Positions 741 through 20,099 are shown, numbered from the stretch's first letter. The stretch: DNA of 64,000 nt from an uncultured Methylomirabilota bacterium (GCA_963705305.1 OY970067.1:4320001-4384000); one strand, 5' to 3'. Numbers and translations: made by a program. Notes: a model not told the origin generated them from the sequence alone.

Positions 741-771
741 AAATAAGGTAATTACGGTTACAACGTCCCCC
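741..771 (+). repeat. Cassette-boundary site, subtype A
   Basis: aaataaggtaattacggttacaacgtccccc. Confidence 0.9.
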
Positions 772-845
772 CGACGCTAGTTGGGGTCAGAGCTGTGCGG
801 ATAAATATGCTGTACATTGTTGACCGAACCCTGATGGAGCATTTC

Positions 846-1025
846 TTTGCGACCTTTGCGTCTTGGCGTGAGAATATTCCGGGTCTCTCTCCATTTCGCA
901 TTTCGAACTTCAAATTTCGAATTTTCCTTTGCGCCTCTGCCCCCCCCACTCGCCCCTGCGCCTCTTCGCCTCAGCGCCTCTACGGCCCCCTTCCCTTTAC
1001 CCTTTGCCCTTTGCCCTACGCCACA
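846..1025 (+). repeat. Composite low-complexity linker (9-mer motif, atttcga 7-mers, cgcctctn 8-mers, tgccctt 7-mers)
   Basis: ctttgcgac ctttgcgtc ttggcgtga; atttcgc atttcga acttcaa atttcga; cgcccctg cgcctctt cgcctcag cgcctcta; ttccctt taccctt tgccctt tgcccta. Confidence 0.75.
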
Positions 1026-1056
1026 GGATACGGTCAATAATGTCGCAACGTCCCCT
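1026..1056 (+). repeat. Cassette-boundary site, subtype B
   Basis: ggatacggtcaataatgtcgcaacgtcccct. Confidence 0.9.
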
Positions 1057-1207
1057 AGACCGAGTGGCGGAGAGTACCTCCCGGAGAGCGATCCATGTCC
1101 GGGCGATCGGCCGCTTCCCGCGGCGTTCGGAGAGGGTCCCGGGATGCAGTTTCCCCTTGCTGGCACGTCGGGATGGCGCTACACTATGGGCACCCTGGAG
1201 GTGCTAC

Positions 1208-1531
1208 ATGAGTGTAACCACGCACAGAACCCGGACCAAGGCAACGTCGCAGCGGGAGGCGGCGCCCATGGCCTCCCGGATTGTCCGCCGGAGCTTTGCG
1301 CTTCCCCGGCACATCGTCATGGAGGCCACGGCAGTGGCCCCGGCTGAGCTGCAGACCAACCTCAACCGGCTCGTCACGACCGCGCTAGAAGAGTACACGG
1401 CCACCCGCAAACAGCAGGCCTTTGCAGCCGCCATGGCCGCCATGGCGGCGGACCCTGCGGTCACCCGCGTCTCCAGCGACCTCCTGGCGGTCTTTCGCAC
1501 GACCGAGGTGGACGGCCTCCCCGATGATTAG
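1208..1531 (+). CDS. Putative RHH-like antitoxin of MazF-2 (copy 1)
   Basis: GGAGGTG RBS, ATG 1208, overlaps downstream MazF start. Confidence 0.7.
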   Translation: MSVTTHRTRTKATSQREAAPMASRIVRRSFALPRHIVMEATAVAPAELQTNLNRLVTTALEEYTATRKQQAFAAAMAAMAADPAVTRVSSDLLAVFRTTEVDGLPDD

Positions 1532-1886
1532 CCGCGGCCAGATCTACCGCGTCAACCTCAATCCCGTCCATGGCCGCGAGCAGAAGGGGATGCGCCCCGT
1601 CCTGGTCGTCTCCGCCGATGCCATCAACCGTCAGCCGCTCGTCGTGACCGTCGTGGCAGGCACGGACGCGACCACCGTGCCCCGCGACTACCCGACGAAC
1701 GTCCGGGTGCCGGCCCGCGAGAGCGGCTTGCCGAAGGACACGGTCTTCCTGTGCTTCCAGCTCCGAACCCTCGATCCGACGCGCTTCCAGGATCCTCGCA
1801 CCGGCCAGGTGACGCCGGTGGGCCAGCTCCCGGCGGCGCGCATGGCCGAGGTCGATACAGCGCTCCGCGCCGTGCTGAGCTTCTAG
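1524..1886 (+). CDS. mazF: MazF/PemK family toxin (type 2, copy 1)
   Basis: RGQIYRVNLNPVHGREQKGMRPVLVVS...ESGLPKDTVFLCFQLRTLD. Confidence 0.92.
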   Translation: MISRGQIYRVNLNPVHGREQKGMRPVLVVSADAINRQPLVVTVVAGTDATTVPRDYPTNVRVPARESGLPKDTVFLCFQLRTLDPTRFQDPRTGQVTPVGQLPAARMAEVDTALRAVLSF

Positions 1887-2260
1887 GAGCCTGGAGAGCG
1901 CCAACAAGTCTGTGGTCGCCGAATCATGCCGGCGGGACCGTTCCGCGAATAGCCCCTCCTCTTGCGTTTCAGCGCCTGATCCTACGTCCGTGCGCGATGG
2001 CACGGAGCTGGCCGACCTGACCGGCCAGGCATTGTGCCCCAAGACGGCTTGTGAAACGAGGCCCTATCGGCAATCCCACGTCTCCCCCGTGCCGGCGGAT
2101 CGCCCTCGACCGCGAGAACCGCCTCGACGCTCATCTAGCCGCTTTCTCCCGAGCGTCGCGGGAGCGGAGAAGGGCATGCGGACGGCGGTCGTCAGGAGCG
2201 GCAGGCGGGAAGGGGGGGGATCGGACTCAGGGACTTGAGGGAGGCCCGGAAGGGTGGCGG

Positions 2261-2291
2261 CAACAAGGTAATTAAGGTTACAACGTCCCCT
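2261..2291 (+). repeat. Cassette-boundary site, subtype A
   Basis: caacaaggtaattaaggttacaacgtcccct. Confidence 0.9.
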
Positions 2292-2902
2292 CGGCCTTGT
2301 TCCCCTCCATCAGGGGCACGTGTTTGTGGGCCGCCGCGTGGAAGAGGACCTCGGGCAGGTGCTCCTCCAGGACAGCCGTCATCCGCGCCTCGTCGGTGAC
2401 ATCGGCGATCACGGGGTGGAGGACGAGCTTCGGGACCTTGTCCCGCAGCTCCAGCTCCACGAAGAAGAGGCCGTTCTCGGACCGGTCCAAAAGGACCAGC
2501 TCGGCCGGCTCGAACCGGGCGATCTGGCGGCACAGCTCCGACCCGATGGAGCCGCCCGCCCCCGTCACCAGGACCCGCTTCCCGGACACGAACTGCTCCA
2601 CCTCGGCCTGGTCGATGCGGACCGGCTCGCGCCGCAGGAGGTCCGCGATGTTCAGCCGGCGGGGCCTCACCGCCAGGGCCGGGCTGTCCGTCAGCTCGCG
2701 CAGGTTGGGGATCGTCTTGAACTCCACCTGGGCGGACCGGCAGGCCCCGATGATCCGGCGCATCTGCTCGCCGGTGGCCGAGGGGATGGCGATCAAGAGC
2801 TCGTGGATCGCATGCGTGTGGCACAACCCGGGCAGCTCGTCGATCGTCCCCAGCACCTTCTTGCCGTGGATGCGCCGGCCCTGCCTGGCCGGATCGTCGT
2901 CC
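2289..2902 (-). pseudogene. Internal fragment of a capD/pglF-like dehydratase allele (copy 1)
   Basis: Colinear with 22268-22881 with scattered substitutions; begins exactly at the site 3' end. Confidence 0.9.
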
Positions 2903-2943
2903 GCGGGCCCCACCGTACCGTCCGTCCCTCTCCTCGGAAGGTC

Positions 2944-2971
2944 TTGACATGTGTTGTCAGATCTGCCAACA
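2944..2971 (+). promoter_or_regulatory. -35 box and palindromic operator upstream of higBA
   Basis: TTGACA at 2944; near-perfect palindrome tgttgtcagatctgccaaca 2952-2971. Confidence 0.55.
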
Positions 2972-3008
2972 TCGCAATTACCGGCGGCCCAAGGGAAGGC
3001 AAGATACG

Positions 3009-3355
3009 ATGACTCGGAAGACACGACCAATTTCGTGGGTCAGCGCGGCGCTCAGGGAATTCCAGGCGTTCCCGGAGGGGGCCAAGGCGATTTGTCTTGC
3101 CGCTCTCACGGTGGCCGCTGAAAACGAGAAAGCTGACATTGCGAGCCGATGCACGGCATGGGCGCGGGTGTATTTGAGATCGCTCTGCGGTTTCGGAGCA
3201 ATGCGTTTCGAGTCGTCTATCCCGTGCAGCTTGGAGACGACATCTGGGTGCTCCATGCGTTCGAGAAGAAATCGAAGCGGGGCGCCAAAACTCCGGGGGG
3301 CGAAATCGATTTGATTAAGAACCGCCTGAAGAGATTGAGGGAGATGTTGCCATGA
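3009..3355 (+). pseudogene. higB: RelE/HigB (Gp49-like) toxin, frameshifted near 3144 (copy 1)
   Basis: MTRKTRPISW...KADIA in one frame continues as MHGMGAGVFEI...HAFEKKSK in another; gcgagccg lacks one A. Confidence 0.8.
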
Positions 3356-3672
3356 AAACAAAGGGGGAAGTTATGCGCGGCAGCGGGAATGTTTTCCGCG
3401 ACTTGGGCCGTGAGACCGCGGATATTGAGCAGTTCAAGGCAATCCTGGCCGCGGAAATCATTAAGACCCTCAACCGGGAGCGCTTGACCGTGCGGGCCGC
3501 GCAGGCGCGCACGGGCATTGCTGCGGCCGATTTCTCGCGCATTCGGAACACGGACCTCGGCCGGTTCACCGCCGACCGCCTCATGGCGACCCTCAACCGA
3601 CTCGGGGCGCGGGTGGAGGTCAAGGTCAGGGTGCGGCGCGCCGAACCTGTCGCGCACCGCGCCACAGCCTAG
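3352..3672 (+). CDS. higA: XRE HTH antitoxin (HigA-like, copy 1)
   Basis: GSGNVFRDLG...HTH...FTADRLMATLNRLG; overlaps toxin stop. Confidence 0.85.
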   Translation: MKTKGEVMRGSGNVFRDLGRETADIEQFKAILAAEIIKTLNRERLTVRAAQARTGIAAADFSRIRNTDLGRFTADRLMATLNRLGARVEVKVRVRRAEPVAHRATA

Positions 3673-3780
3673 CTGTCACGTTGGCTCGTTCACTGCGCAG
3701 CGCAAAGGCTGAAGACGGCGGTGGGCTGGCAGGGGCAGCGGAGTCAGGGGTGAGCAGAGGCTGGAAGGAGGGGAGTTGGA

Positions 3781-3811
3781 AAATAAAGTCAATAATGTCG
3801 CAACGTCCCCT
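3781..3811 (+). repeat. Cassette-boundary site, subtype B
   Basis: aaataaagtcaataatgtcgcaacgtcccct. Confidence 0.9.
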
Positions 3812-3896
3812 AAACGTTCTGCCGTTCGACGTTCCACGTGCTCCGCTCGATGTTCCTAACCGCCGCACGTCGAACCGCAGCACGTCGAACCGTCTC

Positions 3897-4280
3897 CTAC
3901 CGCAGCACCCCGGAGGCCCAGCCGAGGATCCCGAGGCCCGCACCGGCAGTATCCAGCAGCACGTCCCACGGGGTGCCGTGGCGGCCAGGCACGAAGGTCT
4001 GGTGCCACTCGTCCAGTCCCCCCACCGCCATTGCCGTCGCCAAGGCGCAGGCGATGACCAGCGTTCGCTGCCGGCCGTTGCCATTCGTCGCAGATCGGGA
4101 CAGCAGCCAGCCGAGGACCGCGTACTCCGCCAGGTGGATGCTTTTTCGAAGAAGCAGGCGCAGCACGTCCCCGTCCCGCATGGGGAGCGCGTGGGACGAG
4201 CCAATCAGAAAAATAACGCCAACCCAGATGAGCGTGAGCATCCAGAGTCGGCGGCGATCGGTTACCGTCGCAATCTGCAT
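3897..4280 (-). CDS. vanZ: VanZ family membrane protein
   Basis: RKSIHLAEYAVLG...DEWHQTFVPGRHGTPWDVLLDTAG. Confidence 0.85.
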   Translation of the reverse strand: MQIATVTDRRRLWMLTLIWVGVIFLIGSSHALPMRDGDVLRLLLRKSIHLAEYAVLGWLLSRSATNGNGRQRTLVIACALATAMAVGGLDEWHQTFVPGRHGTPWDVLLDTAGAGLGILGWASGVLR

Positions 4281-4416
4281 TTGGCAATCTGACCTTCGCC
4301 TGGAGATGCAGTCAAAAAGCGTATACTGGGGCCTGCTCCAGGCGAGATAATCTCCGTCCCGCTATCCTGCACGGCCTGAAGGAGTTCCTCAACAGAGACC
4401 TCCCCCTCGCTCAGCC

Positions 4417-4764
4417 TTAGATGTAGAGAAGTTGGTCCGCCACCTCGGAGGCTGCCAACCGCGTGAGGAGGCGGCCCACTCTCGCCACTATCTCCGTCGG
4501 TAGACGCCGGCGGGCAATGATGATGCCTGTATGGTGCCTGCCCACCCCCAGCCACTCGCTGTGAAGGCGTTCGAAGTCGGCACGGTTGTGCGTCAGCAGG
4601 GCCCGCCGCATCCTCGTGGCATGCGCCAGCTGCTCGTTGTCGGAGAGACCCAGTTGTCCAAGGTCGCGGGTGGTCACCGCATCAAAACCGCGGCCCCGCA
4701 GGATAGCGGCGACGACGACCGAGACATCTTCGTCGAGGTAGAGGGCGGCAGGGGGATCAGGCAT
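4417..4764 (-). CDS. DUF5615 PIN-like toxin
   Basis: LYLDEDVS...LSDNEQL...LLTHNRADF...HTGII. Confidence 0.85.
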   Translation of the reverse strand: MPDPPAALYLDEDVSVVVAAILRGRGFDAVTTRDLGQLGLSDNEQLAHATRMRRALLTHNRADFERLHSEWLGVGRHHTGIIIARRRLPTEIVARVGRLLTRLAASEVADQLLYI

Positions 4765-5041
4765 CGGGGCGGGATGCCGGGTGGGCTAGCTCGTCCGGAA
4801 CCTCATTGCGCTCGGTGTGCAGATCGATTTCCCCCTGGTGATCCGCATAGTAACTGAGCGCATCAAAGACCTGCGCTAGGGTCAGGTAGGGAAAGTGCAC
4901 GGGAATCTCTTCGGGCGTCACGCCCCCCCGCCAGAGACCCACCACGGCTCGCACGGGAACGCGGGTGCCCTGGATGACCGGCTCGCCCCCGAGGATACTG
5001 TCGTCCCGGATGATGTACCGATGTTCCGTGGCAACGACCAT
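4757..5041 (-). CDS. DUF433 antitoxin
   Basis: ILGGEPVIQGTRVPV...LTLAQVFDALSYY. Confidence 0.88.
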   Translation of the reverse strand: MVVATEHRYIIRDDSILGGEPVIQGTRVPVRAVVGLWRGGVTPEEIPVHFPYLTLAQVFDALSYYADHQGEIDLHTERNEVPDELAHPASRPDA

Positions 5042-5065
5042 ACGCCTTCCCTCCGGCTGCTCCGC

Positions 5066-5093
5066 ATTATAGGCCATCCTGGCCCATTGGCAA
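5066..5093 (-). promoter_or_regulatory. Sigma70-like promoter for the DUF433/DUF5615 pair
   Basis: Minus strand TTGCCA-16 bp-TATAAT. Confidence 0.65.
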
Positions 5094-5316
5094 GTCTCTT
5101 CCTACCGCGGCCCCTCTCGCTCGCTGAAGCCTGGCGGCTCTCTGCGTCCGTCGCCGCCTTGACCGGGTGGCGCCCGGGTTGCGCACGTAGGCGAGATCCA
5201 CCGCAGGCGTAGGGCTTGCCGCGCAGCTTTCCGACCCGATCGTGCGGCGACAGCGGACGAGCGGAGAAAGGCATGCGGACGGCGGTCGTCAGGAGCGGCG
5301 GCAGGCAGGGCGGTGA

Positions 5317-5347
5317 CAATAAGGTAATTAAGGTTACAACGTCCCGT
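5317..5347 (+). repeat. Cassette-boundary site, subtype A
   Basis: caataaggtaattaaggttacaacgtcccgt. Confidence 0.9.
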
Positions 5348-5519
5348 CGATGCTTTGGTGGGGAGAGGAGACGGGGAAGTCGGAAGGAGAGAGGGTCGAT
5401 CGGCTTTCGGCGTGTGCGGTGGGGGTGCGTACGGTGGGACGGCAAGGCGCGATCGGAATCAGAGGCGGCTTTGCCCTTTGCCCTGTGCGCTATGCGCTTC
5501 GCCCTTTGCGTTTCAAGGC

Positions 5520-5790
5520 GAGCCAATGAGAAAAATAACGCCGACCCAGGCGAGCGTGCGCGTCCAGAGCCGGCGAGGGTCAGTCAGATTGGAGATCCGC
5601 ATTCGGAGGACCGACGAAAGATATATCCACTACCCTCCAGCTAGAGCCGCTTGGTGCGCCCCAACCTCAAAAATGAGTTGCCACCACGAGCCCGATAGAC
5701 GCACCGGTCAGCGCGACCGCGAAGACTCTGAGCAGTGTATGCCCATGCCGGCCTGGAAACGCTCCTTCGCCCCCGCTTTTCCGATTCTTC
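5520..5790 (-). pseudogene. Fragments of the vanZ 5' end and of the small membrane-protein gene upstream of it
   Basis: Diverged paralogue of ~20580-20840 (...LLRVFAVALTGASIGLVVATHF; ISNLTDPRRLWTRTLAWVGVIFLIG). Confidence 0.65.
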
Positions 5791-5833
5791 CCTACTCGCC
5801 GGCGCCTTCGTCCTCCACACCCTGGTTGATTAC

Positions 5834-6187
5834 CTACGAGGGTGGCGTCGAGATCCGTATCCGTCCGCCGCGGACCGTGATGATCATTCCACCCGTGAGG
5901 GCGTCTTCATGTCGTTCCAGAACCTGCGCCATCAGCTCAATGCGTTGCTTCGCCGGAACATCGGGCAAGCGGACGATGCCGCGGTGTGGCGCTGCCTCGA
6001 GAAAGACCAGTTCGCCGAAGTCTGTGTCGATCGTGACGAGAATGCGCTCTTCGCTCGCGGCCCACTGGAGCAGCACCCGATCCCCAGGATCGTGTCCGCG
6101 CACCCGGGACTCGAGGACGTCATGCCCCTGCCCACGGAGCCAGTCGGCGAGTCGCCGGCCGGCACACCGGTCCACCAGGAATCTCAC
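5834..6187 (-). CDS. DUF5615 PIN-like toxin
   Basis: RFLVDRC...GHDV...ILVTIDTDFGEL...HRGIVRL. Confidence 0.88.
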   Translation of the reverse strand: MRFLVDRCAGRRLADWLRGQGHDVLESRVRGHDPGDRVLLQWAASEERILVTIDTDFGELVFLEAAPHRGIVRLPDVPAKQRIELMAQVLERHEDALTGGMIITVRGGRIRISTPPS

Positions 6188-6432
6188 TGCCCGGCCACCC
6201 GGACCGCATCGAGGGTATCGTTGGCGATCACGGCGCGCGCGTACGAGAGGCACGCGCGGATGTCGTCGGGTTCCAGATCGGGATACTCAGCGAGAATATC
6301 CTGCACCGACTCACCCTGAGCGAGCAGGCTCAGAATGAGTTCCACAGAAATTCGCATCCCGCGGATAATCGGTTTCCCGCCGAAGATTTCCGGGTTCGCA
6401 ACGATTCGCCTGAGAAGCTCTGGATCTGTCAT
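6184..6432 (-). CDS. DUF433 antitoxin
   Basis: NPEIFGGKPIIRGMRISV...EYPDLEPDDIRACLSYA. Confidence 0.9.
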   Translation of the reverse strand: MTDPELLRRIVANPEIFGGKPIIRGMRISVELILSLLAQGESVQDILAEYPDLEPDDIRACLSYARAVIANDTLDAVRVAGQ

Positions 6433-6673
6433 GGTCTCACCACCCCTCCACGGAGCATTCCGGCAGAGTGTCACAGCGCCCATAGTATACCATCAATCCG
6501 CCGGTTTTCCTGGTTTTTGCCCTGAGCGCGGAAACCCTAACCCGCAACGGTCCGACCCTCGACGCTTCGGATGGAACGCGGTAAGAGGAGAGGGGTCGGA
6601 ATATCTGGGTGGCGGGACGGCAGGGCGCGATCGAGGTCAGGGGTGAACGGAGGCTGGAAGGAGGGGAGCTGGA

Positions 6674-6704
6674 AAATAAAGTCAATAATGTCGCAACGTC
6701 CCCT
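6674..6704 (+). repeat. Cassette-boundary site, subtype B
   Basis: aaataaagtcaataatgtcgcaacgtcccct. Confidence 0.9.
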
Positions 6705-6974
6705 CGACGCATTGGTGGGGAGAGGAGACGGGGAAGTCGGAAGGAGAGGGGGTCGATCGGCTTTCGGCGTGTGCGGTGGCGGTGCGTACGATGGCACGGC
6801 AGGGCGCGATCGGAATCAGAAGCGGCTTTGCCCTTTGCCCTGTGCGCTATGCCTTTTGCGCTACGCTCTTCGCTTTTCGCACTGTGTCCCTTGCCGCAGA
6901 GCCCCCCTCGTGGTAGGCTCACGCCAGCATCCCGGGCAAACGATCAGCCGTGCAACTGCCTGGAGGAGTTGGCC

Positions 6975-7226
6975 ATGAAACCAAAGAGGCCCGCACCTGT
7001 CGAGATCGCGCCTCGCATCGCGGTGAATTCGCGGGTACGATTCGGGCAGCCCGTGATCAAGGGAACGCGGGTCCCCGTGGCCGTGGTCTTGGATGAAATG
7101 GCGGCGGGGACCGCCATCGAAGATATCACACGGGAATACGGCATCACGCGTGATGATGTGCGTGCGGTGTTTCGCTACGCCGCCAAGGTACTGGGTACCG
7201 AGGAAGTCAGGGCAGCGAGCCGGTGA
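6975..7226 (+). CDS. DUF433 antitoxin
   Basis: GGAGGAG RBS; RFGQPVIKGTRVPV...EYGITRDDVRAVFRYA. Confidence 0.88.
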   Translation: MKPKRPAPVEIAPRIAVNSRVRFGQPVIKGTRVPVAVVLDEMAAGTAIEDITREYGITRDDVRAVFRYAAKVLGTEEVRAASR

Positions 7227-7591
7227 TCCGCTTTCTGATTGACGCGGACCTCCCCCGGTCCGTTTCCGCCGCCCTGCGGGAGCGTGGTTTCCTGGCTGAT
7301 GATGTGCGGGATCTGGACCTCGGCACAGCGACCGACAACGTCATACTTCACTATGCACGGACCCACGCCTACACTCTGGTATCGGCTGATAAAGGGTTTA
7401 CAAACCTCGTGCGATACCCTCTGGGCTCCCATTGCGGGATCGTTGTCGCACGATTTTCCCCGCATACTTCCGCGCGGATGAAAACCCGCCTCCTGGTCCG
7501 GTGGCTTCCCACTCTGCAGGATGAGGACGTGGCGGGAAGCCTCTTGATCGTCCAGCCAAAAGGCATCCGGATCCGGCGTGCAAAACAATAA
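7223..7591 (+). CDS. DUF5615 PIN-like toxin
   Basis: RFLIDADLP...ATDNVI...LVSADKGF...HCGIVV. Confidence 0.88.
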   Translation: MIRFLIDADLPRSVSAALRERGFLADDVRDLDLGTATDNVILHYARTHAYTLVSADKGFTNLVRYPLGSHCGIVVARFSPHTSARMKTRLLVRWLPTLQDEDVAGSLLIVQPKGIRIRRAKQ

Positions 7592-7906
7592 CGCCGGCCG
7601 GGCGATAGTAAGCAGCCCGAGCCGGCGCAGATCAGTCAGCCGTCAGAGCGGTATTCCCGCAGCAATAGAGCAATGAAAATACCCGAGAAACTCTTTTGCG
7701 GCTGAGGCATCCCGGCCCAGTCGCAAGGTTCTTCCTGCGGCCGCTCCTCTTCCTCAGCACCCCTGCTCCCTTGCGCCCTTGCGCCTCCGCCCCATGCCAT
7801 ATGCTCTGTGCCCTCTGCCCTTTGCTATCCGGACCGCAGGCTGACCCCTGACCGCTGGCTACTAGTCTTTGCGCCATGCTCTTTGCTCTTCGCCCTGTGC
7901 GCTTCA

Positions 7907-7937
7907 CAATATGGACCATGGCTGCTTGACGTCATGG
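7907..7937 (+). repeat. Possible highly degenerate boundary site
   Basis: caatatgg...acgtc at the spacing of subtype A; ends a ~200-bp linker shared with 14405-14640, which also ends in a site. Confidence 0.4.
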
Positions 7938-7958
7938 CGGTTCCGAACGTTTCGCAAT

Positions 7959-8644: not shown

Positions 8645-8931
8645 TGCCTCCTCCGTCCTATTTGTCCTTGAACCGAATCCAGCCGGGCCCTTCTTGGCGC
8701 ATCGGCGGCAAGAGGCTTCCGGGATAGAGCTAATTGTGTAACTATTGTCTAGTATTACACATCCAATGAACACAGTCAACCCGCAACTCGGCGCGCCATC
8801 TGACCGCAGATGAGGATTCGGAGAAACTGAGGCGGGTCGTGAAGGGGGACGGCTGAAGCGGGATCGGAATCAGGAGGGGCCGCGCTTGGCGCTCTGCTCT
8901 ATGCTCTTCGCCCTTTGCGCTGTGCGTTTCA

Positions 8932-8962
8932 CAATAAGGTAATTAAGGTTACAACGTCCCCT
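8932..8962 (+). repeat. Cassette-boundary site, subtype A
   Basis: caataaggtaattaaggttacaacgtcccct, in phase with the upstream heptamer tract. Confidence 0.9.
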
Positions 8963-12900: not shown

Positions 12901-13254
12901 ACCGCACCGATCCTCACCCTCACTGCCGCAGCCAGTTGCGCCCCACTGAACGTCTCCGAGGCGAATCCCCCGTCAAGTTTCTACCACAGCGCCCTGGAAC
13001 ATCGCCGATCTCGGCCCATATCGTAGGGACTATAGAGGCAACGATAAGGCCCGCAACCAACACAGGCCTCGACATATCGCGTTAGCCCTCCTTGACCCGC
13101 GAGCTGCGGTCGCGCGTAGCGCACCCATCGGTGTCACGCAGCGAACGACATGGACGTCATCATTAGTTCCTCTTCCCCGCTCCTCTTGGGGCCCTTTGCG
13201 AGGCGGTGATTTCGTCGGAATGGAGCTAGCGAAAGGCGGGAGGAAGGGAGGCGG

Positions 13255-13329
13255 CAACAAGACAACTTATGCTACAACGTTCCATCGTACACGAAATTCG
13301 GCAACAGCAATAACCAGATCGCGTCCCCT
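13255..13329 (+). repeat. Two tandem degenerate boundary sites
   Basis: caacaagacaacttatgctacaacgttcc (13255) and cggcaacagcaataaccagatcgcgtcccct (13299). Confidence 0.55.
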
Positions 13330-13433
13330 TTCTTGTGCCTGCGCGGAGAACCGACCCTACGCCTCGACGAGAATGACGGAAGTGCCTCGCTGTTTAGTGT
13401 GCGACGCTTTCCGAGGTTCGGCAGGAGATGCAG

Positions 13434-13748
13434 TCAAAAAGCATATACCGGGGTCTGCTCCAGGCGAACGGGAGGCGTGGACCCGATCAGGTCCAGGATC
13501 CTGCGGGTCACGGCCTCTTCGAGCAGCACTTCGTCCGTCAGCAGATCCACGAGGACCGGTACCTGCTCCACAATGGTCACTTTCCCGCGGACGGTGAGGG
13601 AGATCGTTCGAACATCGCACCGCAGCTCGCTCATCTCCGCGGCCTCCTTCCACGAAAATCTGCGCTCCAGCGTTCCGGGTGAAGATCTGGCCGGTAGGTT
13701 GTCACCAACTTCACTCGCTCACGAACAATCCCGAACGCCATATGCCAT
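13434..13748 (-). pseudogene. YgiT/MqsA-like antitoxin remnant
   Basis: RTISLTVRGKVTIVEQVPVLVDLLTDE...VRLEQTPVYAF; in-frame stop at 13719; related 3' scrap near 4300-4350. Confidence 0.4.
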
Positions 13749-13824
13749 GGTCGCCCCCCGTTTCTCGCTTTCGCCGACTCTCCGGCTCTCCGCACCAAAA
13801 CACGGAACCCAGCGCGCCGGTCCC

Positions 13825-14073
13825 CTATTCCTGTGTGTAGAATTCTCTTCGAAGATCATCCTGGGGAACGAAACGGCTCGCCTGCCGAATGATCGCCTAG
13901 AGGGTGCCCACATCCAATTCTCTGTGCTGCGGGAGAGTCAATGTCTGCACGCTCCCCGAAGGTGCCACTCGTCTCAGCTTTACGTGACTCCCTCGTTGAG
14001 CGTGGACCCGAAAGCCAAACCGGGCGAGAATGGTGATCACGTCGTCGCCGGACAGCCGTCTAAGCTTGGGCAC
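13825..14073 (-). pseudogene. hicA: HicA toxin with a premature TAG at codon 59
   Basis: Hand translation MPKLRRLSGDDVITILARFGFRVHAQRGSHVKLRR...LPQHRELDVGTL*AIIRQA; stop at 13897-13899; absent from the ORF track. Confidence 0.85.
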
Positions 14074-14296
14074 CGGCCGGCTCCAGCTCCATGGTCACCA
14101 AGATCGTGGGGTGCGGGACGAGGCCGAAGTCAGCGGCGTTTTCCCCTTCGAGGTGGAGGGCGACGGCCTCCTGCAGGTTTGCAAGGGTTTCGTCTACCGT
14201 CCTTCCCTGGGTTACGACAGCCAGCTCCATGCATTCGGCGACATACCAGTCGTCGCCCCGGCGAAGCAAGGCCTTCACGGTGTGCTGCAGCGTCAT
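14060..14296 (-). CDS. hicB: HicB-like antitoxin
   Basis: WYVAECMELAVVTQGRTVDETLANLQEAVALHLE. Confidence 0.88.
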   Translation of the reverse strand: MTLQHTVKALLRRGDDWYVAECMELAVVTQGRTVDETLANLQEAVALHLEGENAADFGLVPHPTILVTMELEPAGAQA

Positions 14297-14398
14297 AGCT
14301 TTCTCCGCTCTCCTCTCAAGTGCTCTTGCCGTGCCCCCGCTCGCGACCGACCAACGGAACTGTCATCGCTTCTTACGCGTGCCATCGGAGTCTTCAGC

Positions 14399-14426
14399 AT
14401 TATAAGCCATCCCGGCCCAGTCGCAA
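14399..14426 (-). promoter_or_regulatory. Sigma70-like promoter for hicBA
   Basis: Minus strand TTGCGA-16 bp-TATAAT; homologous to 5066-5093. Confidence 0.65.
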
Positions 14427-14636
14427 GGTTCTTCCTCCAGCCGCTCCTCTTCCTCAGCACCCCTGCTCCCGAGCGCAGCGGTGCGCCCCCTCCCTCCGGG
14501 GTGGAGCCCCTACGGGGTGGAACCCGGACCGCAGGCTGACCCCTGACCTCTGACCTCTGACTACTAGTTTTTGCGCCATGCCCCCTGCTCTCTGCCCTCT
14601 GCTCTTTGCCCCGTGCCCCGCGCCCTATGCGCTTCG

Positions 14637-14666
14637 CAATCTGGTCAAAAACGTCGAATGTCCCCT
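14637..14666 (+). repeat. Degenerate boundary site (B-like)
   Basis: caatctggtcaaaaacgtcgaatgtcccct after a long heptamer tract (~14535-14640). Confidence 0.65.
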
Positions 14667-14732
14667 AAATTCACAGGTTGGGGACGGTCTTGAAGTCCAC
14701 CTGGATGGAGCGTGGTCCCAGCATGGATGCCC

Positions 14733-14780
14733 TTGACCTGTGATAAGAGGGCTGGTACTGTCTTGACCGTCTAGACGGTC
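14733..14780 (+). promoter_or_regulatory. Promoter and operator of the MazF-1 module
   Basis: TTGACC-17 bp-TACTGT (extended -10); perfect 16-bp palindrome gaccgtctagacggtc 14765-14780. Confidence 0.65.
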
Positions 14781-14813
14781 TAGGCAGCCTTAGTCGTCTT
14801 GGGGGGCGTTCAG

Positions 14814-15044
14814 ATGAAACCGGAAAGGAAGATGGTCTACATCTCTGAAGAGGCTCATGGACGGCTCAAGCTCTTGGCCGCCCGCCGCAATCGGCCAATG
14901 GGGGAGCTCGTCGACGAGCTGGTCGCGCAAGAGCTGGCCGACCTCGTCAACCCCTGGACCGGTCCCGAGGGCCTGATGCTCCAGCAGAGCATCTTGGCGC
15001 GGATCTGGGATGATCCCGCCTTGGATGTGTATGACCATGATTGA
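14814..15044 (+). CDS. Antitoxin of MazF-1 (copy 2)
   Basis: Duplicate of 1-223. Confidence 0.75.
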   Translation: MKPERKMVYISEEAHGRLKLLAARRNRPMGELVDELVAQELADLVNPWTGPEGLMLQQSILARIWDDPALDVYDHD

Positions 15045-15408
15045 GCTCCGGCGGGGTGACGTCGTCCTCGTAAGCTTTCCATTCGTCATCCCCAACCATA
15101 CCCAGCGGAAGCGACGGCCGGCCGTGGTCGTTCAGTCCGATCGGTACAACCGCCGGCGAGCGGCCGTTATCGTCGCCGCCATCACCAGTACCCAGGGCTA
15201 CGCCCACCTTCCCTGCAAGCTCCTGGTGGCGAAAGACACGCCTGAGGGCCGCGAGGCCGGTCTCCGCCTGGATAGCGTGGTAGACTGCCAGACCCTGGCC
15301 ACGATCCCCCGAGGGGAGATCGTCCGCCGTCTCGGCAGATTTCCCCAGGACGTGATGCGTCGTCTGGACCAAGCCCTCCAGGACGCGCTGGGCTTGCCAG
15401 TGGTCTGA
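15031..15408 (+). CDS. mazF: MazF/PemK toxin (type 1, copy 2)
   Basis: Same protein as 210-587. Confidence 0.9.
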   Translation: MTMIELRRGDVVLVSFPFVIPNHTQRKRRPAVVVQSDRYNRRRAAVIVAAITSTQGYAHLPCKLLVAKDTPEGREAGLRLDSVVDCQTLATIPRGEIVRRLGRFPQDVMRRLDQALQDALGLPVV

Positions 15409-15561
15409 AATGCTGGCGAGGAGTGTACGATTGGACGCCTGGGCGAACCTACCGTCCGCTGGCAGATTGGAAGCCGACAGGGACGCGTTGGAGTATGCAC
15501 GGATGGGATGGGGAGGGGCGGCGTCAGATTTGGGACTGGCGGAGAGAGGAAGGCAAGCGGC

Positions 15562-15592
15562 AAATAAGGTAATTACGGTTACAACGTCCCCC
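15562..15592 (+). repeat. Cassette-boundary site, subtype A
   Basis: aaataaggtaattacggttacaacgtccccc. Confidence 0.9.
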
Positions 15593-15599
15593 CGATGGC

Positions 15600-15827
15600 T
15601 CAGGTGGGCGGACCGTAGAGGCACTGGTCGTGCCGGATGGAGATATCGGTTTCGGTCGATTCCCCGTTCCCGATGAGCGCCTCCAGTCCTCGTCGCTGCC
15701 CCTCTGCGATTCGGGCAGGCTCATCTGGAAGCAAGAGCACATAGATGTGCTCCTTCTCCCTCAGGTCCACCGACTCCAGAGGCCGAAGGATGCCACACTC
15801 ATAAACGGCCTGAACGACTTTTGTCAC
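15600..15827 (-). CDS. AF2212/DUF104 family antitoxin (orphan)
   Basis: VQAVYECGILRPLESVDLREKE; no toxin downstream, site A lies 7 bp past the stop. Confidence 0.78.
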   Translation of the reverse strand: MTKVVQAVYECGILRPLESVDLREKEHIYVLLLPDEPARIAEGQRRGLEALIGNGESTETDISIRHDQCLYGPPT

Positions 15828-16001
15828 CGTATCTCCTTCCCAAGCCAGGAGGTAGATTCCCTTGAACCTGAGAGTAGCTATGTGCGCTTAGGAAGTCAAG
15901 GCTTGTTCACCCGCTGCCCCCCGCGCCCCCTCTCGCCCCTGCGCCTCTTCGCCTCAGCGCCTCTACGGCCCCCTTCCCTTTGCCCTTTGCCCTACGCCAC
16001 A

Positions 16002-16032
16002 GGATACGGTCAATAATGTCGCAACCTCCCCT
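16002..16032 (+). repeat. Cassette-boundary site, subtype B
   Basis: ggatacggtcaataatgtcgcaacctcccct. Confidence 0.88.
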
Positions 16033-16216
16033 AGCTTTTTCTCGGGCGGGTGCCGGTGAAGGTGACGGGGATGAGCTTGCCGGGCGACCACCGCTTGGAG
16101 GCAAGTGCGTGTTTCGTCTCCCGCTTCCCCTCAAGTCGTGATATGCTATGCTCTAAAATAGAGCAAGCCAGGGGGTGCTGTCGACGGCACCGGTGGACTG
16201 AACGGTCAGGACGGCA

Positions 16217-16498
16217 ATGGATATCGTAACCGCCAACCGACATGACATCTTGCGGATCGCACGCCGCCACGGGGTGGCTCAGGTCCGCCTGTTTGGCTCC
16301 CAAGCACGAGGCGTTGCGGGTGAAAGCAGCGACGTCGATCTCCTGATCGAGGTGGAGGGGCCCACCACACCGTGGTTCCCGGGCGGGCTGGTGGCTGACC
16401 TCGAGGCATTGTTGGGGTGCCGCGTGGACGTCGTGGAGGCGGACGCGCTGCACCCGGATGTCCGGGCACAGGCGCTGGCGGAGGCGCGGACGTTGTGA
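16217..16498 (+). CDS. Minimal nucleotidyltransferase (MNT) antitoxin
   Basis: LFGSQARG...SSDVDLLIE...LEALLGCRVDVV. Confidence 0.9.
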   Translation: MDIVTANRHDILRIARRHGVAQVRLFGSQARGVAGESSDVDLLIEVEGPTTPWFPGGLVADLEALLGCRVDVVEADALHPDVRAQALAEARTL

Positions 16499-16848
16499 AG
16501 GATGACCGGGTCTACCTCCGGCATATCCTCCAATGCATCGAGGCCATCGGCGGCTATATCACGTCGGGACGCCCGCAGTTCTTCGCAGATCGCAAGACCC
16601 ACAAGGCCGTCCTTCGCGAGCTCCAAGAACTCTCTGAGTCCGTCCAGCGGCTTTCGCCGGAACTACGAGCGCATCACCCTGAAGTCCCTTGGGCCGCCAT
16701 CGGCGGATTCAGGAACGTGCTGGTCCATGACTACCTGGGAATCAGCCTTTCCCGTGTGTGGGACGTGATCGAGCGGGATCTTCCCGCCCTTCGGACAACA
16801 GTGCTGCATATGCTCCGAGATCTCGGCGAGCGCCCTCCCGCGCCCTAA
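16495..16848 (+). CDS. HEPN (DUF86/HepT-like) toxin
   Basis: YLRHIL...PEVPWAAIGGFRNVLVHDY (RX4H motif). Confidence 0.9.
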   Translation: MKDDRVYLRHILQCIEAIGGYITSGRPQFFADRKTHKAVLRELQELSESVQRLSPELRAHHPEVPWAAIGGFRNVLVHDYLGISLSRVWDVIERDLPALRTTVLHMLRDLGERPPAP

Positions 16849-17062
16849 CTCCCTGCTCTATACTTCAGCCCCCAGTGTCTTCTTCTCGACGTACGCTCGC
16901 ACCCTCATACCTCCTCGTCTTTTCTGCCCGCCTCCCCTGCTCCTCGCTTCTCCGCGCGGTTCTCAATTTCGAATGTCGCATTTCGAACTTCGAATTCCCC
17001 CCGTCGCCCGCTCCCCCCTCCGCCCCATGCCCTACGCTCTGTGCCCTTTGCCCTACGCCACA

Positions 17063-17093
17063 GGATACGGTCAATAATGTCGCAACGTCCCCT
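17063..17093 (+). repeat. Cassette-boundary site, subtype B
   Basis: ggatacggtcaataatgtcgcaacgtcccct. Confidence 0.9.
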
Positions 17094-17244
17094 AGACCGA
17101 GTGGCGGAGAGTACCTCCCGGAGAGCGATCCATGTCCGGGCGATCGGCCGCTTCCCGCGGCGTTCGGAGAGGGTCCCGGGATGCAGTTTCCCCTTGCTGG
17201 CACGTCGGGATGGCGCTACACTATGGGCACCCTGGAGGTGCTAC

Positions 17245-17568
17245 ATGAGTGTAACCACGCACAGAACCCGGACCAAGGCAACGTCGCAGCGGGAGGCGGC
17301 GCCCATGGCCTCCCGGATTGTCCGCCGGAGCTTTGCGCTTCCCCGGCACATCGTCATGGAGGCCACGGCAGTGGCCCCGGCTGAGCTGCAGACCAACCTC
17401 AACCGGCTCGTCACGACCGCGCTAGAAGAGTACACGGCCACCCGCAAACAGCAGGCCTTTGCAGCCGCCATGGCCGCCATGGCGGCGGACCCTGCGGTCA
17501 CCCGCGTCTCCAGCGACCTCCTGGCGGTCTTTCGCACGACCGAGGTGGACGGCCTCCCCGATGATTAG
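17245..17568 (+). CDS. Antitoxin of MazF-2 (copy 2)
   Basis: Duplicate of 1208-1531. Confidence 0.7.
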   Translation: MSVTTHRTRTKATSQREAAPMASRIVRRSFALPRHIVMEATAVAPAELQTNLNRLVTTALEEYTATRKQQAFAAAMAAMAADPAVTRVSSDLLAVFRTTEVDGLPDD

Positions 17569-17923
17569 CCGCGGCCAGATCTACCGCGTCAACCTCAATC
17601 CCGTCCATGGCCGCGAGCAGAAGGGGATGCGCCCCGTCCTGGTCGTCTCCGCCGATGCCATCAACCGTCAGCCGCTCGTCGTGACCGTCGTGGCAGGCAC
17701 GGACGCGACCACCGTGCCCCGCGACTACCCGACGAACGTCCGGGTGCCGGCCCGCGAGAGCGGCTTGCCGAAGGACACGGTCTTCCTGTGCTTCCAGCTC
17801 CGAACCCTCGATCCGACGCGCTTCCAGGATCCTCGCACCGGCCAGGTGACGCCGGTGGGCCAGCTCCCGGCGGCGCGCATGGCCGAGGTCGATACAGCGC
17901 TCCGCGCCGTGCTGAGCTTCTAG
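17561..17923 (+). CDS. mazF: MazF/PemK toxin (type 2, copy 2)
   Basis: Duplicate of 1524-1886. Confidence 0.92.
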   Translation: MISRGQIYRVNLNPVHGREQKGMRPVLVVSADAINRQPLVVTVVAGTDATTVPRDYPTNVRVPARESGLPKDTVFLCFQLRTLDPTRFQDPRTGQVTPVGQLPAARMAEVDTALRAVLSF

Positions 17924-18548
17924 GAGCCTGGAGAGCGCCAACAAGTCTGTGGTCGCCGAATCATGCCGGCGGGACCGTTCCGCGAATAGCCCCTCCTCTT
18001 GCGTTTCAGCGCCTGATCCTACGTCCGTGCGCGATGGCACGGAGCTGGCCGACCTGACCGGCCAGGCATTGTGCCCCAAGACGGCTTGTGAAACGAGGCC
18101 CTATCGGCAATCCCACGTCTCCCCCGTGCCGGCGGATCGCCCTCGACCGCGAGAACCGCCTCGACGCTCATCTAGCCGCTTTCTCCCGAGCGTCGGAGGA
18201 CTGGTTTGTCCGTCGCGCCTCATTGCCCATGTCGATCGTGGCACGGGCGATGTCCTTCCCGCCGAAACCTGGCGAGATCGATGGTGGCGCCTCCACCGCG
18301 GCCCCTCTCTCTCGCTGAAGCCTGGCGGCTCTCTGCGTCCGTCGCCGCCTTGACCGGGTGGCGCCCGGGTTGAGCACGTGGGCGAGATCCACCGCAGGCG
18401 TAGGGCTTGCCGCGCAGCTTTCCGACCCGATCGTGCGGCGACAGCGGACGAGCGGAGAAGGGCATGCGGACGGCGGTCGTCAGGAGCGGCAGGCGGGAAG
18501 GGGGGGGATCGGACTCAGGGACTTGAGGGAGGCCCGGAAGGGTGGCGG

Positions 18549-18579
18549 CAACAAGGTAATTAAGGTTACAACGTCCCCT
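18549..18579 (+). repeat. Cassette-boundary site, subtype A
   Basis: caacaaggtaattaaggttacaacgtcccct. Confidence 0.9.
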
Positions 18580-19190
18580 CGGCCTTGTTCCCCTCCATCA
18601 GGGGCACGTGTTTGTGGGCCGCCGCGTGGAAGAGGACCTCGGGCAGGTGCTCCTCCAGGACAGCCGTCATCCGCGCCTCGTCGGTGACATCGGCGATCAC
18701 GGGGTGGAGGACGAGCTTCGGGACCTTGTCCCGCAGCTCCAGCTCCACGAAGAAGAGGCCGTTCTCGGACCGGTCCAAAAGGACCAGCTCGGCCGGCTCG
18801 AACCGGGCGATCTGGCGGCACAGCTCCGACCCGATGGAGCCGCCCGCCCCCGTCACCAGGACCCGCTTCCCGGACACGAACTGCTCCACCTCGGCCTGGT
18901 CGATGCGGACCGGCTCGCGCCGCAGGAGGTCCGCGATGTTCAGCCGGCGGGGCCTCACCGCCAGGGCCGGGCTGTCCGTCAGCTCGCGCAGGTTGGGGAT
19001 CGTCTTGAACTCCACCTGGGCGGACCGGCAGGCCCCGATGATCCGGCGCATCTGCTCGCCGGTGGCCGAGGGGATGGCGATCAAGAGCTCGTGGATCGCA
19101 TGCGTGTGGCACAACCCGGGCAGCTCGTCGATCGTCCCCAGCACCTTCTTGCCGTGGATGCGCCGGCCCTGCCTGGCCGGATCGTCGTCC
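18577..19190 (-). pseudogene. capD-like internal fragment (copy 2)
   Basis: Duplicate of 2289-2902. Confidence 0.9.
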
Positions 19191-19296
19191 GCGGGCCCCA
19201 CCGTACCGTCCGTCCCTCTCCTCGGAAGGTCTTGACATGTGTTGTCAGATCTGCCAACATCGCAATTACCGGCGGCCCAAGGGAAGGCAAGATACG

Positions 19297-19643
19297 ATGA
19301 CTCGGAAGACACGACCAATTTCGTGGGTCAGCGCGGCGCTCAGGGAATTCCAGGCGTTCCCGGAGGGGGCCAAGGCGATTTGTCTTGCCGCTCTCACGGT
19401 GGCCGCTGAAAACGAGAAAGCTGACATTGCGAGCCGATGCACGGCATGGGCGCGGGTGTATTTGAGATCGCTCTGCGGTTTCGGAGCAATGCGTTTCGAG
19501 TCGTCTATCCCGTGCAGCTTGGAGACGACATCTGGGTGCTCCATGCGTTCGAGAAGAAATCGAAGCGGGGCGCCAAAACTCCGGGGGGCGAAATCGATTT
19601 GATTAAGAACCGCCTGAAGAGATTGAGGGAGATGTTGCCATGA
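19297..19643 (+). pseudogene. higB: HigB-like toxin, frameshifted (copy 2)
   Basis: Same frameshift as copy 1. Confidence 0.8.
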
Positions 19644-19960
19644 AAACAAAGGGGGAAGTTATGCGCGGCAGCGGGAATGTTTTCCGCGACTTGGGCCGTG
19701 AGACCGCGGATATTGAGCAGTTCAAGGCAATCCTGGCCGCGGAAATCATTAAGACCCTCAACCGGGAGCGCTTGACCGTGCGGGCCGCGCAGGCGCGCAC
19801 GGGCATTGCTGCGGCCGATTTCTCGCGCATTCGGAACACGGACCTCGGCCGGTTCACCGCCGACCGCCTCATGGCGACCCTCAACCGACTCGGGGCGCGG
19901 GTGGAGGTCAAGGTCAGGGTGCGGCGCGCCGAACCTGTCGCGCACCGCGCCACAGCCTAG
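19640..19960 (+). CDS. higA: XRE antitoxin (copy 2)
   Basis: Duplicate of 3352-3672. Confidence 0.85.
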   Translation: MKTKGEVMRGSGNVFRDLGRETADIEQFKAILAAEIIKTLNRERLTVRAAQARTGIAAADFSRIRNTDLGRFTADRLMATLNRLGARVEVKVRVRRAEPVAHRATA

Positions 19961-20068
19961 CTGTCACGTTGGCTCGTTCACTGCGCAGCGCAAAGGCTGA
20001 AGACGGCGGTGGGCTGGCAGGGGCAGCGGAGTCAGGGGTGAGCAGAGGCTGGAAGGAGGGGAGTTGGA

Positions 20069-20099
20069 AAATAAAGTCAATAATGTCGCAACGTCCCCT
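20069..20099 (+). repeat. Cassette-boundary site, subtype B
   Basis: aaataaagtcaataatgtcgcaacgtcccct. Confidence 0.9.

Follow-up and report, generated by a model that had tools for sequence, protein, structure and literature searches.

Within a 64,000-nucleotide stretch of the genome of an uncultured Methylomirabilota bacterium (GCA_963705305.1, OY970067.1:4320001-4384000), hereafter the window, we studied an array of ~31-nt sites that separate small gene modules, mostly toxin-antitoxin (TA) pairs. The site is almost certainly the end of a TIRYT/TIRtron element, a kind that has been equated with TnpA_REP subclass 2.1. The arrays formed by such sites are, in our judgement, best explained by orientation-specific insertion or exchange of units composed of cargo plus site, driven by the Y1 transposase and taking place directly after ...CGTCCCC (probability of about 0.6). 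A broader proposal, to which we give somewhat less than even odds, is that TIRYT transposases constitute a second, independently evolved gene-cassette platform: HUH nicking directly after ...CAACGTCCCC would shuffle gene-plus-site cassettes into self-seeding same-strand arrays that reach the size of superintegrons (~100 sites in 121 kb in a member of the Desulfobacterota) and stockpile TA and defence genes in several phyla, the 20-kb array of the window being a small example.

The preliminary description of this DNA had presented the site as undescribed and had named a match to the end of an insertion sequence (IS) and a genome-wide scatter of the site as observations that would refute its reading. 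Both were found. The site corresponds to the terminal inverted repeat of TIRYT/TIRtron elements, which is in print (PMC3733652, PMC6006769, in the parts that deal with these repeats), and its exact 10-nt core, CAACGTCCCC, occurs across the genome 62 times on the + strand and 61 times on the - strand, the chance estimate from base composition being ~24 per genome. When the A/T-rich flank was also required, 172 candidate sites were counted with looser thresholds and 110 with stricter ones. According to the same parts of the two papers, TIRYTs are RAYT-like Y1 genes lying between long inverted repeats that start with GGGGWSAS, with repeat copies described as "single, dimeric or grouped" (PMC3733652), and they have been equated with TnpA_REP subclass 2.1, with a DnaA_C-like C-terminus (PMC6006769). 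The terminus of our repeat, GGGGACGT, fits the printed GGGGWSAS at 6/8 positions and differs at positions 7 and 8.

Six inverted site pairs of this genome lie 1.04-1.08 kb apart, have complementary ends of 20-35 nt and enclose an open reading frame (ORF) of 329-343 aa of the form MPRxxRLDxPG..HxH..NRY(K/R)S, with the motifs NHAHLL or HCHLLL and NRYKS or NRYRS. This ORF matches Pfam Y1_Tnp with 28.3 bits (cut-off 23) and NCBIfam REP_Tyr_transpos with 59.4 bits, under the cut-off of 80. A tblastn search identified 13 near-full-length transposase copies in the genome, which range from 47 to 100% identity and include an identical pair, as well as 13 fragments; in window 1-24000 it found neither a copy nor a remnant. 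The shared core is preceded by a 16-nt subterminal sequence that is specific to each transposase paralogue. The element at 1465626-1467877 has as terminal repeat the sequence of the window sites that we call subtype B (see below), and its enzyme gene (1466912-1467832) lies 2.85 Mb from the window. The enzyme was therefore correctly expected to be encoded outside the window, and it is a HUH/Y1 transposase, one of the types that the preliminary description had proposed to look for. For the second subtype, A, no full-length transposase gene of this genome carries the repeat. The one transposase copy of this genome that was scanned gave no Pfam match at E <= 0.01 to a C-terminal helix-turn-helix of the types known from subclass 2.1 (Bac_DnaA_C, HTH_23 or HTH_28). 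Along its entire length, the subtype-B enzyme (L128:2831-3859) shares 42% identity with a homologue in another genome, G034, which matches Y1_Tnp and, at 27.4 bits (under the cut-off of 31.5), Bac_DnaA_C, and the gene of which lies between two direct sites. A similar layout is found at genome 1464-1469 kb, where an inverted end, a TIRYT gene, a site, an adenosine deaminase gene and a further site follow each other; the 35-nt site is duplicated, both direct sites being of type B. Besides these elements, a miniature element of ~214 nt is present in three copies (3156913-3157126, 4911108-4911321, and 4919454-4919666), and its inverted ends belong to two different site types (gacagataatg-CAACGTCCCC and tacaaataatg-CTACGTCCCG).

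In the 64-kb window, the core (<=1 mismatch) occurs 22 times, compared with 6.54 +/- 2.38 in shuffles, and 0/100 shuffles reach 22. A site profile built from 116 genomic copies recovered exactly the 12 clear + strand sites that had been reported (741-20101, each with E <= 4.5e-4); the - strand of window 1-24000 yielded only noise. Of the roughly four degenerate copies also reported, the one at 13255 corresponds to the single weak extra match of the profile (13254-13280, +, E 0.086), those at 13299 (..CGCGTCCCC) and 14637 (GGTCAAAAACGTCGAATGTCCCC) are plausible by eye, and the one at 7907 is very weak and doubtful. Window 741-20098 thus holds 12 clear sites ending in CAACGTCCCC plus 3-4 decayed copies. 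Three further matches to the 10-mer (12410, 22239, and 23654) have no A/T-rich part, lie inside ORFs and were treated as chance. The sites fall into two subtypes, A (AAGGTAATTAAGGTTA-CAACGTCCCC) and B (AAGTCAATAATGTCG-CAACGTCCCC). All of them are intergenic: as stated previously, none lies inside an intact gene, here a Pfam-supported gene of the window ORF scan. The view that the site is non-palindromic, and neither attC nor dif, was also borne out. Single-stranded DNA (ssDNA) folding of 70 nt around four sites (two on both strands, for a total of six folds) gave no significant hairpin (z = +0.88, +0.81, -1.65, -2.01, -1.37, and +0.66), and the internal repeat of the site is direct, not inverted as in attC. 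A structured RNA was discarded, as Rfam gave 0 matches at gathering score in window 1-24000.

The internal repeat lies within the 22 nt before the core. In this genome, the self-identity of this segment is 0.50 at offset 9 (shuffle mean 0.28, max 0.31); in G033, a Desulfobacterota metagenome-assembled genome (MAG) consisting of a 5.2-Mb single contig, it is 0.47 at offset 8 (shuffle mean 0.29, max 0.34). The core is near-invariant in both genomes, and the six bases after it are conserved as CATTAC in G033 and read YMGAYG in the window. The site is made of two tandem half-sites, 8-9 nt apart and differing by subfamily, followed by a core, CAACGTCCCC, common across phyla. The half-sites are presumably read by the putative C-terminal DnaA_C-like helix-turn-helix of the transposase, and the core is the putative HUH nicking site, probably cut at or just after CCCC.

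Two kinds of short tandem repeats accompany the sites. Repeats of 7-8 nt (also 14-16 nt), e.g. CCCTTTG and CTTTGCC, are found just upstream of many sites (893-1017, 5468-5510, 6826-6863, 14492-14616, and 15929-15964), and analogous 7-8-nt repeat spacers (GCTGGGAG, AATGCGG) are present in a site-free TA island of the related genome G032 (C4, 6-20 kb). Directly 3' of some sites, in both phyla, the last 7-8 core bases together with 4-8 bases of flank form tandem repeats, with a 14-17-nt period (e.g. ACGTCCCC-CATTAC); these could be "empty" mini-units or the footprint of repeated nicking and joining.

Strand uniformity is not limited to the window array. A second array starts at window 63162 and runs to genome 4392717, with 8/8 sites on the - strand. 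In its parts with closely spaced sites, there is one MNT/HEPN or Polbeta/HepT pair per interval, in the orientation of the sites; a copy of IS110 is present in the array as well, as is a piece of the adjacent GDP-mannose dehydratase gene, which starts ~25 nt after a site. For other species, one genome each was scanned with a pattern of 15 specified bases, and only multi-site loci were used, the at least 114 stretches retrieved including many chance matches. Among the matches listed, four Desulfobacterota MAGs present 5-12 same-strand sites of mixed subtypes per locus, and Myxococcota MAGs present close inverted site pairs. Subtype A was matched (<=3 mismatches) in only 2/30 other genomes; these are fragmented MAGs, and we give this result little weight. 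A long array was found in G033. Its genome has 75 exact cores on one strand and 6 on the other (3 and 0 in the reversed-pattern control), and in C1:1277903-1398475 (~121 kb) the exact cores are on the - strand in 66/66 cases. Allowing <=1 mismatch and requiring the A/T-rich flank, this array counts 102 sites on the - strand and four doubtful ones on the + strand, with a median spacing of 796 nt and at least 12 half-site types. On contig C65 of G034, 16/16 sites are on the + strand. Replication-strand bias was rejected as the cause of site orientation by the replichore counts over 110 sites of the genome that contains the window (left, 41 - and 35 +; right, 20 - and 14 +), arrays on the + and the - strand being found on the same replichore.

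The Pfam-annotated cargo of the G033 array includes PIN, MazE/MazF, BrnT/CopG, HicAB, DUF5615/DUF433, HEPN/MNT, five MarR-like genes, five Y1_Tnp matches and extra fragments with DnaA_C only. In a hand count, 53/53 Pfam-annotated ORFs other than classical transposases and recombinases were on the site strand, and the 11 on the opposite strand were DDE, rve, and resolvase genes. ORF-based cassette statistics were not relied on for this array, as the ORF calls were crude and placed 21/95 sites inside a called ORF of >=70 aa. Similar kinds of cargo (PIN, MazEF, HicAB, BrnTA, DUF5615/DUF433, and MNT/HEPN) fill the arrays of distant phyla.

Evidence on the unit boundaries was obtained by comparing a 140-kb stretch of G033 with itself by BLAST, which gave 172 high-scoring segment pairs (HSPs) of >=150 nt, i.e., 344 ends on each side. 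The 3' HSP ends fell at -2..+10 of a site end in 63/344 cases (3.3 expected by chance), and the 5' HSP ends at 0..+16 after a site end in 37/344 cases (4.3 by chance), with 0-6 in the shifted control windows for both. At least one copy spans from site edge to site edge in 15 HSPs, and both copies do so in one. The latter is a 1,145-nt cassette carrying a PemK/MazF gene, present at 1297039-1298182 and 1290688-1291832 with 99.8% identity. It starts after the CCCC of two different site types (at +0 in one copy; at +5, with CATTA in between, in the second), its 3' limit is its own site, and the two copies differ in what lies downstream. Homologous recombination is hard to invoke for this placement because the flanking sites share the core only. 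In the window island, 14/60 3' HSP ends are at site ends (~0.3 expected), and only 2/60 5' HSP ends are, both belonging to a fragment of a capD-like gene. Repeat units thus have a common 3' end and a variable 5' end, in the window island as in G033. The junction between site and capD fragment reads ...CAACGTCC/CCTCGG; in the intact capD-like gene, both fragment breakpoints follow CCGCC and CGTCGTCC, a single case that may be due to chance.

In the mechanism that we propose, each site would represent the right end of a Y1 (HUH) single-strand-DNA transposon of the TIRYT type. The enzyme would nick a single strand at two consecutive sites, each time at the 3' edge, and so release cargo and one site, probably as a single-stranded circle, and the released unit would be re-joined 3' of another site. 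Each insertion would preserve the old target and add a new one in the same orientation, leading to self-seeding arrays in which small self-contained modules (for instance TA pairs and defence genes) could accumulate. Occasional joining of the 3' edge to unrelated DNA might also take place and would account for the gene fragments abutting sites. The cassettes of the window would themselves have moved in this way in the past.

Several observations weigh against such movement. In 22 G033 pairs, one copy starts right after a site and no CGTCC-like sequence precedes the break in the internal copy; the simple use of pseudo-sites as left ends is disfavoured, since the internal copies lack a site-like sequence. 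The public reads revealed no excision products or circles, and no gain or loss at strain level; all of them were low-depth Logan contigs from three runs of one study, which covered at best a 0.39 share of the stretch. Two read contigs were judged unusable as evidence of excision: one of 548 nt joins 3776 to 6670, skipping exactly two cassettes between B sites, but shares 35 nt there and may be an assembly path through the repeat, and the other joins 14485 to 958 through low-complexity DNA. Four genomes of the same genus, in the regions around the best matches, hold homologous TA modules (74-85% nt identity). Four such modules are found within 10 kb of each other in G032, in an order different from that of the window and with 7-8-nt tandem repeats as spacers, and no CAACGTCCCC site was present in the stretches around the TA-module matches (G032:C4:1-40000, G005, and G015). 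The TA modules therefore do not depend on the sites. Elsewhere in the genome, many solo sites come with transposase-gene remnants or as ~230-nt inverted pairs, so whole-element decay also occurs. The cargo of the window is of mixed orientation, ~9/14 modules being co-oriented with the sites. Moreover, most repeated window cassettes belong to one segmental duplication of 5.6-7.2 kb: window 1002-4259 matches 17039-20637 at 93-100%, with indels, and was also scored as a 99.8-99.9% duplicate of it, and genome -1341..774 (relative to the window start) matches 13480-15595 at 99.9%. As a consequence, ~5/12 window sites are recent copies and not independent events. One indel between the duplicate copies starts at a site edge and ends inside a cassette. 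Finally, a one-strand mechanism leaves the movement of the inverted-ended element itself unexplained. The integron-like cassette platform suggested in the preliminary description is thus backed by the related arrays, with unit boundaries exactly at site edges in G033, and weakened by the duplication in the window and by the relatives that have TA modules without sites.

These observations can also be read without any cassette movement. The sites might be the remains of whole TIRtrons, or of miniature derivatives, gutted by deletion in a tolerant variable island where the TA modules pre-existed or arrived separately. The 13 transposase-gene fragments and the ~230-nt inverted pairs of the genome are consistent with this, together with the TIRYT fragments inside the G033 array, the modules without sites in relatives, the single duplication that accounts for most window repeats, and the accumulation of other IS elements (IS110, DDE, and ISL3) in array regions. 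We nevertheless consider it unlikely. Random decay predicts both ends and both orientations, whereas one strand was observed for 12/12, 8/8, and 102/~106 sites; no transposase remnant is left in window 1-24000 according to tblastn; and in G033 homology blocks both begin and end at site edges far above chance, with one intact cassette behind two different site types. Less probable still is a spread of the ~31-nt sites alone, comparable to that of REP (repetitive extragenic palindromic) sequences and BIMEs, in which the transposase would have placed them in intergenic DNA, near existing copies or low-complexity tracts, where they would be regulatory, insulating or simply tolerated, with the genes as bystanders. 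The intergenic position of all sites and the printed grouping of such repeats (PMC3733652, in the part on repeat copies) agree with it. So do sites of different types only 11-66 nt apart without cargo (genome 4384427/4384467 and several G033 pairs) and solo sites beside ordinary genes, such as that at genome 694728, 20 nt upstream of a conserved gene. The genes flanking this last site are conserved in five relatives and the intergenic DNA does not align, so the insert is not delimitable. On the other hand, the site has neither a hairpin nor an Rfam match, and site-only spread explains neither cargo-bearing repeat units running from site edge to site edge nor gene fragments fused to site edges.

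A further reading, an atypical integron or a cluster of attC sites lacking an integrase (CALIN), in which the sites would be unusual attC and the recombinase a tyrosine enzyme of the IntI type, appears very improbable. It draws on the array-like layout with TA cassettes and on one IntI-like ORF (853432-854377, -) that exceeds the TIGR02249 cut-off (317.8 bits vs 265). However, this ORF is 3.47 Mb away and interrupted, being matched in two pieces with a TGA in frame of the larger; the sites lack the dyad symmetry of attC and are identical to the ends of Y1-transposase elements; and no Phage_integrase-type match was found among the scanned array ORFs. The IntI-like ORF itself is either broken or recoded.

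Integrons consist of IntI and attC arrays, attC being an imperfect palindrome that folds as ssDNA. Sedentary chromosomal integrons, such as the Vibrio superintegron, resemble the arrays described here in their long runs of same-orientation sites, with one small module per interval, many TA cassettes and the site at the 3' end of the unit; the co-orientation of all G033 cargo with the sites and a likely single-stranded substrate are further similarities. The differences concern the enzyme, which is a HUH Y1 nuclease here and a tyrosine recombinase in integrons, and the site, which here is not a folded palindrome. In addition, no attI or Pc platform gene is found at the array end, many site subfamilies can be present in a single array, and the enzyme genes are cassettes themselves or separate IS-like units.

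The TIRtrons/TIRYTs of Di Nocera, De Gregorio & Rocco 2013 (PMC3733652), i.e., TnpA_REP subclass 2.1 of Quentin et al. 2018 (PMC6006769), share with our elements the RAYT-like Y1 gene with HUH and Tyr motifs, the long terminal inverted repeats starting with GGGG, a probable C-terminal DnaA_C-like helix-turn-helix, the repeats occurring singly, paired or grouped, and several paralogous enzymes, each with its own repeat. Apart from the terminus, the difference is that the parts of these papers on repeats and enzymes speak of "clusters" and are silent on arrays with all sites on one strand, on cargo between copies, on half-sites, and on boundaries at site edges. Quentin et al., in the part concerned, found no repeats near subclass 2.1 genes (PMC6006769). 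The same enzyme subclass is known from marine picocyanobacteria, where its genes are interspersed with procA (prochlorosin) clusters and a role in cluster diversification was proposed (Laurenceau et al., 10.1101/2020.03.09.984088). These clusters also contain many truncated C-terminal gene fragments among small accessory genes. No associated inverted or direct repeats were found there, and the causal claim was later withdrawn; here, a defined site marks the unit boundaries. IS200/IS605 elements (IS608, ISDra2), with their "peel and paste" transposition, have a Y1 HUH enzyme too, insert 3' of a short specific sequence (PMC6006769, in its part on these elements), present two ends of the same polarity on the active strand and may have passenger genes. 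They differ in their subterminal hairpins, their lack of inverted repeats and their orientation bias towards the lagging strand of replication, whereas our elements have inverted ends, no hairpin and no replichore bias, and their target appears to be the element's own end. IS91, ISCR, and Helitron elements likewise use HUH chemistry, capture fragments of adjacent genes and have one end fixed; they are Y2 or Rep-helicase systems with a fixed 5' origin and variable 3' read-through, unlike the RAYT-like Y1 and the fixed 3' end found here. REP/RAYT systems (REPtron, REPIN, BIME) are based on palindromic REPs of 20-40 nt with a 5' GTAG and a RAYT that is usually single-copy; here, the site has no palindrome, the core has CGTC instead of GTAG, and the genome has 13 full-length enzyme genes.

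The enzyme family and its inverted repeats are, therefore, already in print. We found no account, in the open-access literature searched, of arrays that carry cargo between same-strand Y1/HUH sites, with the qualification that the supplementary repeat lists of PMC3733652 may be relevant. If our reading is correct, with a Y1/HUH enzyme and a non-folded site, cassette platforms would have evolved at least twice. To our knowledge, no established system other than integrons stores genes in long ordered arrays as cassettes bounded by sites, and where integron cassettes come from is a long-standing question. The reading would also make the function of the widespread TIRYT/TnpA_REP subclass 2.1 proteins directly testable (a 31-nt substrate, a predicted cut site and natural arrays), would explain the clustering of TA and defence modules in such islands of uncultured soil and sediment bacteria, and would point to an ssDNA-insertion enzyme of compact size, whose specificity is modular and encoded in half-sites. 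If the sites are instead remains of decayed elements, the arrays are an ordinary, though unusually tidy, pile of transposon ends.

The cargo of the window array was determined by scanning 121 ORFs against Pfam. In line with the statement that most intervals hold a TA pair or other cargo, TA-type genes are present in 10/12 intervals: MazEF (four), Gp49/HTH_37 (two), DUF5615/DUF433 (three), PIN/RHH, and MNT/HepT. Of the remaining two intervals, one holds a small AF2212-like ORF and the other (771-1055) no gene. That the cargo often has its own promoter is only weakly backed, since sigma-70-like promoters are not clearly enriched (6 vs 2.9 +/- 1.8 in shuffles). The coordinates are collected in Table 1.

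Table 1. Sites, cargo and related features of the window array and of the arrays compared with it (window coordinates unless otherwise indicated)
Feature	Position	Strand	Basis and remarks
Cassette-like array	1..20098	+	Begins upstream of window; low-complexity spacers reach ~4.4 kb before base 1
Site, subtype A variant (AAGGTAATTACGGTTA-CAACGTCCCC)	741..770 (profile 741-773)	+	E 7.3e-6; 3' end of first MazEF module
Site, subtype B	1026..1055 (profile 1026-1059)	+	Closes 285-nt gene-less interval, mostly 7-8-nt low-complexity repeats
Site, subtype A	2261..2290 (profile 2261-2294)	+	Internal capD-like gene fragment joined directly to 3' edge
Site, subtype B	3781..3810 (profile 3781-3813)	+	3' end of capD'-HigBA-like module
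Site, subtype A	5317..5346 (profile 5317-5349)	+	Core CAACGTCCCG (1 mismatch)
Site, subtype B	6674..6703 (profile 6674-6707)	+	
Site, subtype A	8932..8961 (profile 8933-8965)	+	From +6 on, mosaic of three fragments copied from genome 4.642-4.646 Mb
Two adjacent decayed sites	13254-13284 and 13301-13328	+	Profile (first: E 0.086), by eye
Decayed subtype-B-like site	14637..14666	+	Preceded by heptamer repeats; duplicate at genome -185 relative to window start
Site, subtype A variant	15562..15591 (profile 15562-15594)	+	Duplicate of site 741-770
Site, subtype B	16002..16031 (profile 16002-16035)	+	Core CAACCTCCCC (1 mismatch)
Site, subtype B	17063..17092 (profile 17063-17096)	+	3' end of MNT/HepT module
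Site, subtype A	18549..18578 (profile 18549-18582)	+	Duplicate of site 2261-2290
Site, subtype B, last of array	20069..20098 (profile 20069-20101)	+	Beyond: acyltransferase-like fragment, intact capD-like gene (21153-23444, -)
Second array, first site, subtype B	63162-63193	-	Profile
Second array, second site, subtype A	63316-63349	-	Profile
MazEF (MazF + upstream small ORF)	189-587, 1422-1886, 15010-15408, 17459-17923		Pfam
Gp49/HTH_37 (HigBA-like)	3149-3672, 19437-19960		Pfam
DUF5615/DUF433	4417-5077, 5834-6483, 6609-7591		Pfam
PIN/RHH	7959-8779		Pfam
MNT/HepT	16217-16848		Pfam
AF2212-like small ORF	15600-15827		Pfam
AEP-TOTE primase-helicase, 863 aa	9950-12541		Pfam
capD-like internal fragments (polysaccharide gene, this genome)	2291-2902, 18579-19190		Intact copy 21153-23444 (-)
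GDP-mannose dehydratase fragment (polysaccharide gene, this genome)	L125:792-1140		
NeuB and gmd fragments (polysaccharide genes, G033)	L176:16831-17724, L178:17242-17763		
Epimerase_2 and GNVR fragments (polysaccharide genes, G034)	L078:147-593, 4269-4649		
5'-truncated TIRYT genes, G033	Reverse-complement coordinates 115366, 79045, 112620 (genome ~1292635, 1328956, 1295381)		Only C-terminal DnaA_C-like part left
Post-site tandem repeats, this genome	Genome 480984-481007, 482067-482100, 503097-503120		
Post-site tandem repeats, G033	Genome 1362994-1363037, 1305719-1305761, 1398451-1398475		

Some further features of the arrays were recorded. The arrays of three distant genomes adjoin polysaccharide-biosynthesis loci and hold fragments of their genes (Table 1). 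Several of the 5'-truncated TIRYT genes of G033 start at the same codon (after ..YPW and before GHS), each directly behind a different site type. A MarR/HTH_24-type gene of ~128 aa is found five times in or beside the G033 array (L176:13296-13679, L176:15410-15793, L178:12953-13336, L180:5495-5791, and L182:11882-12265), three of the copies being followed after ~150-165 nt by the same site type, and once in the G034 array (L078:5148-5528); it may be either a frequent cargo or an accessory factor.

In the window, the protein encoded at 9950-12541 combines an AEP-TOTE primase with a ResIII/DEAD helicase, as in conflict systems, and is conserved at 73-85% nt identity in three genomes of the same genus (G013, G014, and G006). 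A 73-nt stretch is present in five diverged copies, 64-85% identical to the reference copy (4210-4282, 5532-5604, 7584-7656, 20588-20660, and 20989-21061), scattered across the array and its right flank; on the - strand it resembles the start of a membrane or acyltransferase-like ORF. Lastly, a Tn7/Tn5053-like module with an rve + Mu-transpos_C transposase, a TniB-like ATPase, and a TniQ-like protein lies 6.5-12 kb upstream of the window (genome 4308054-4313542), and the TA island may be located in or beside its cargo region.

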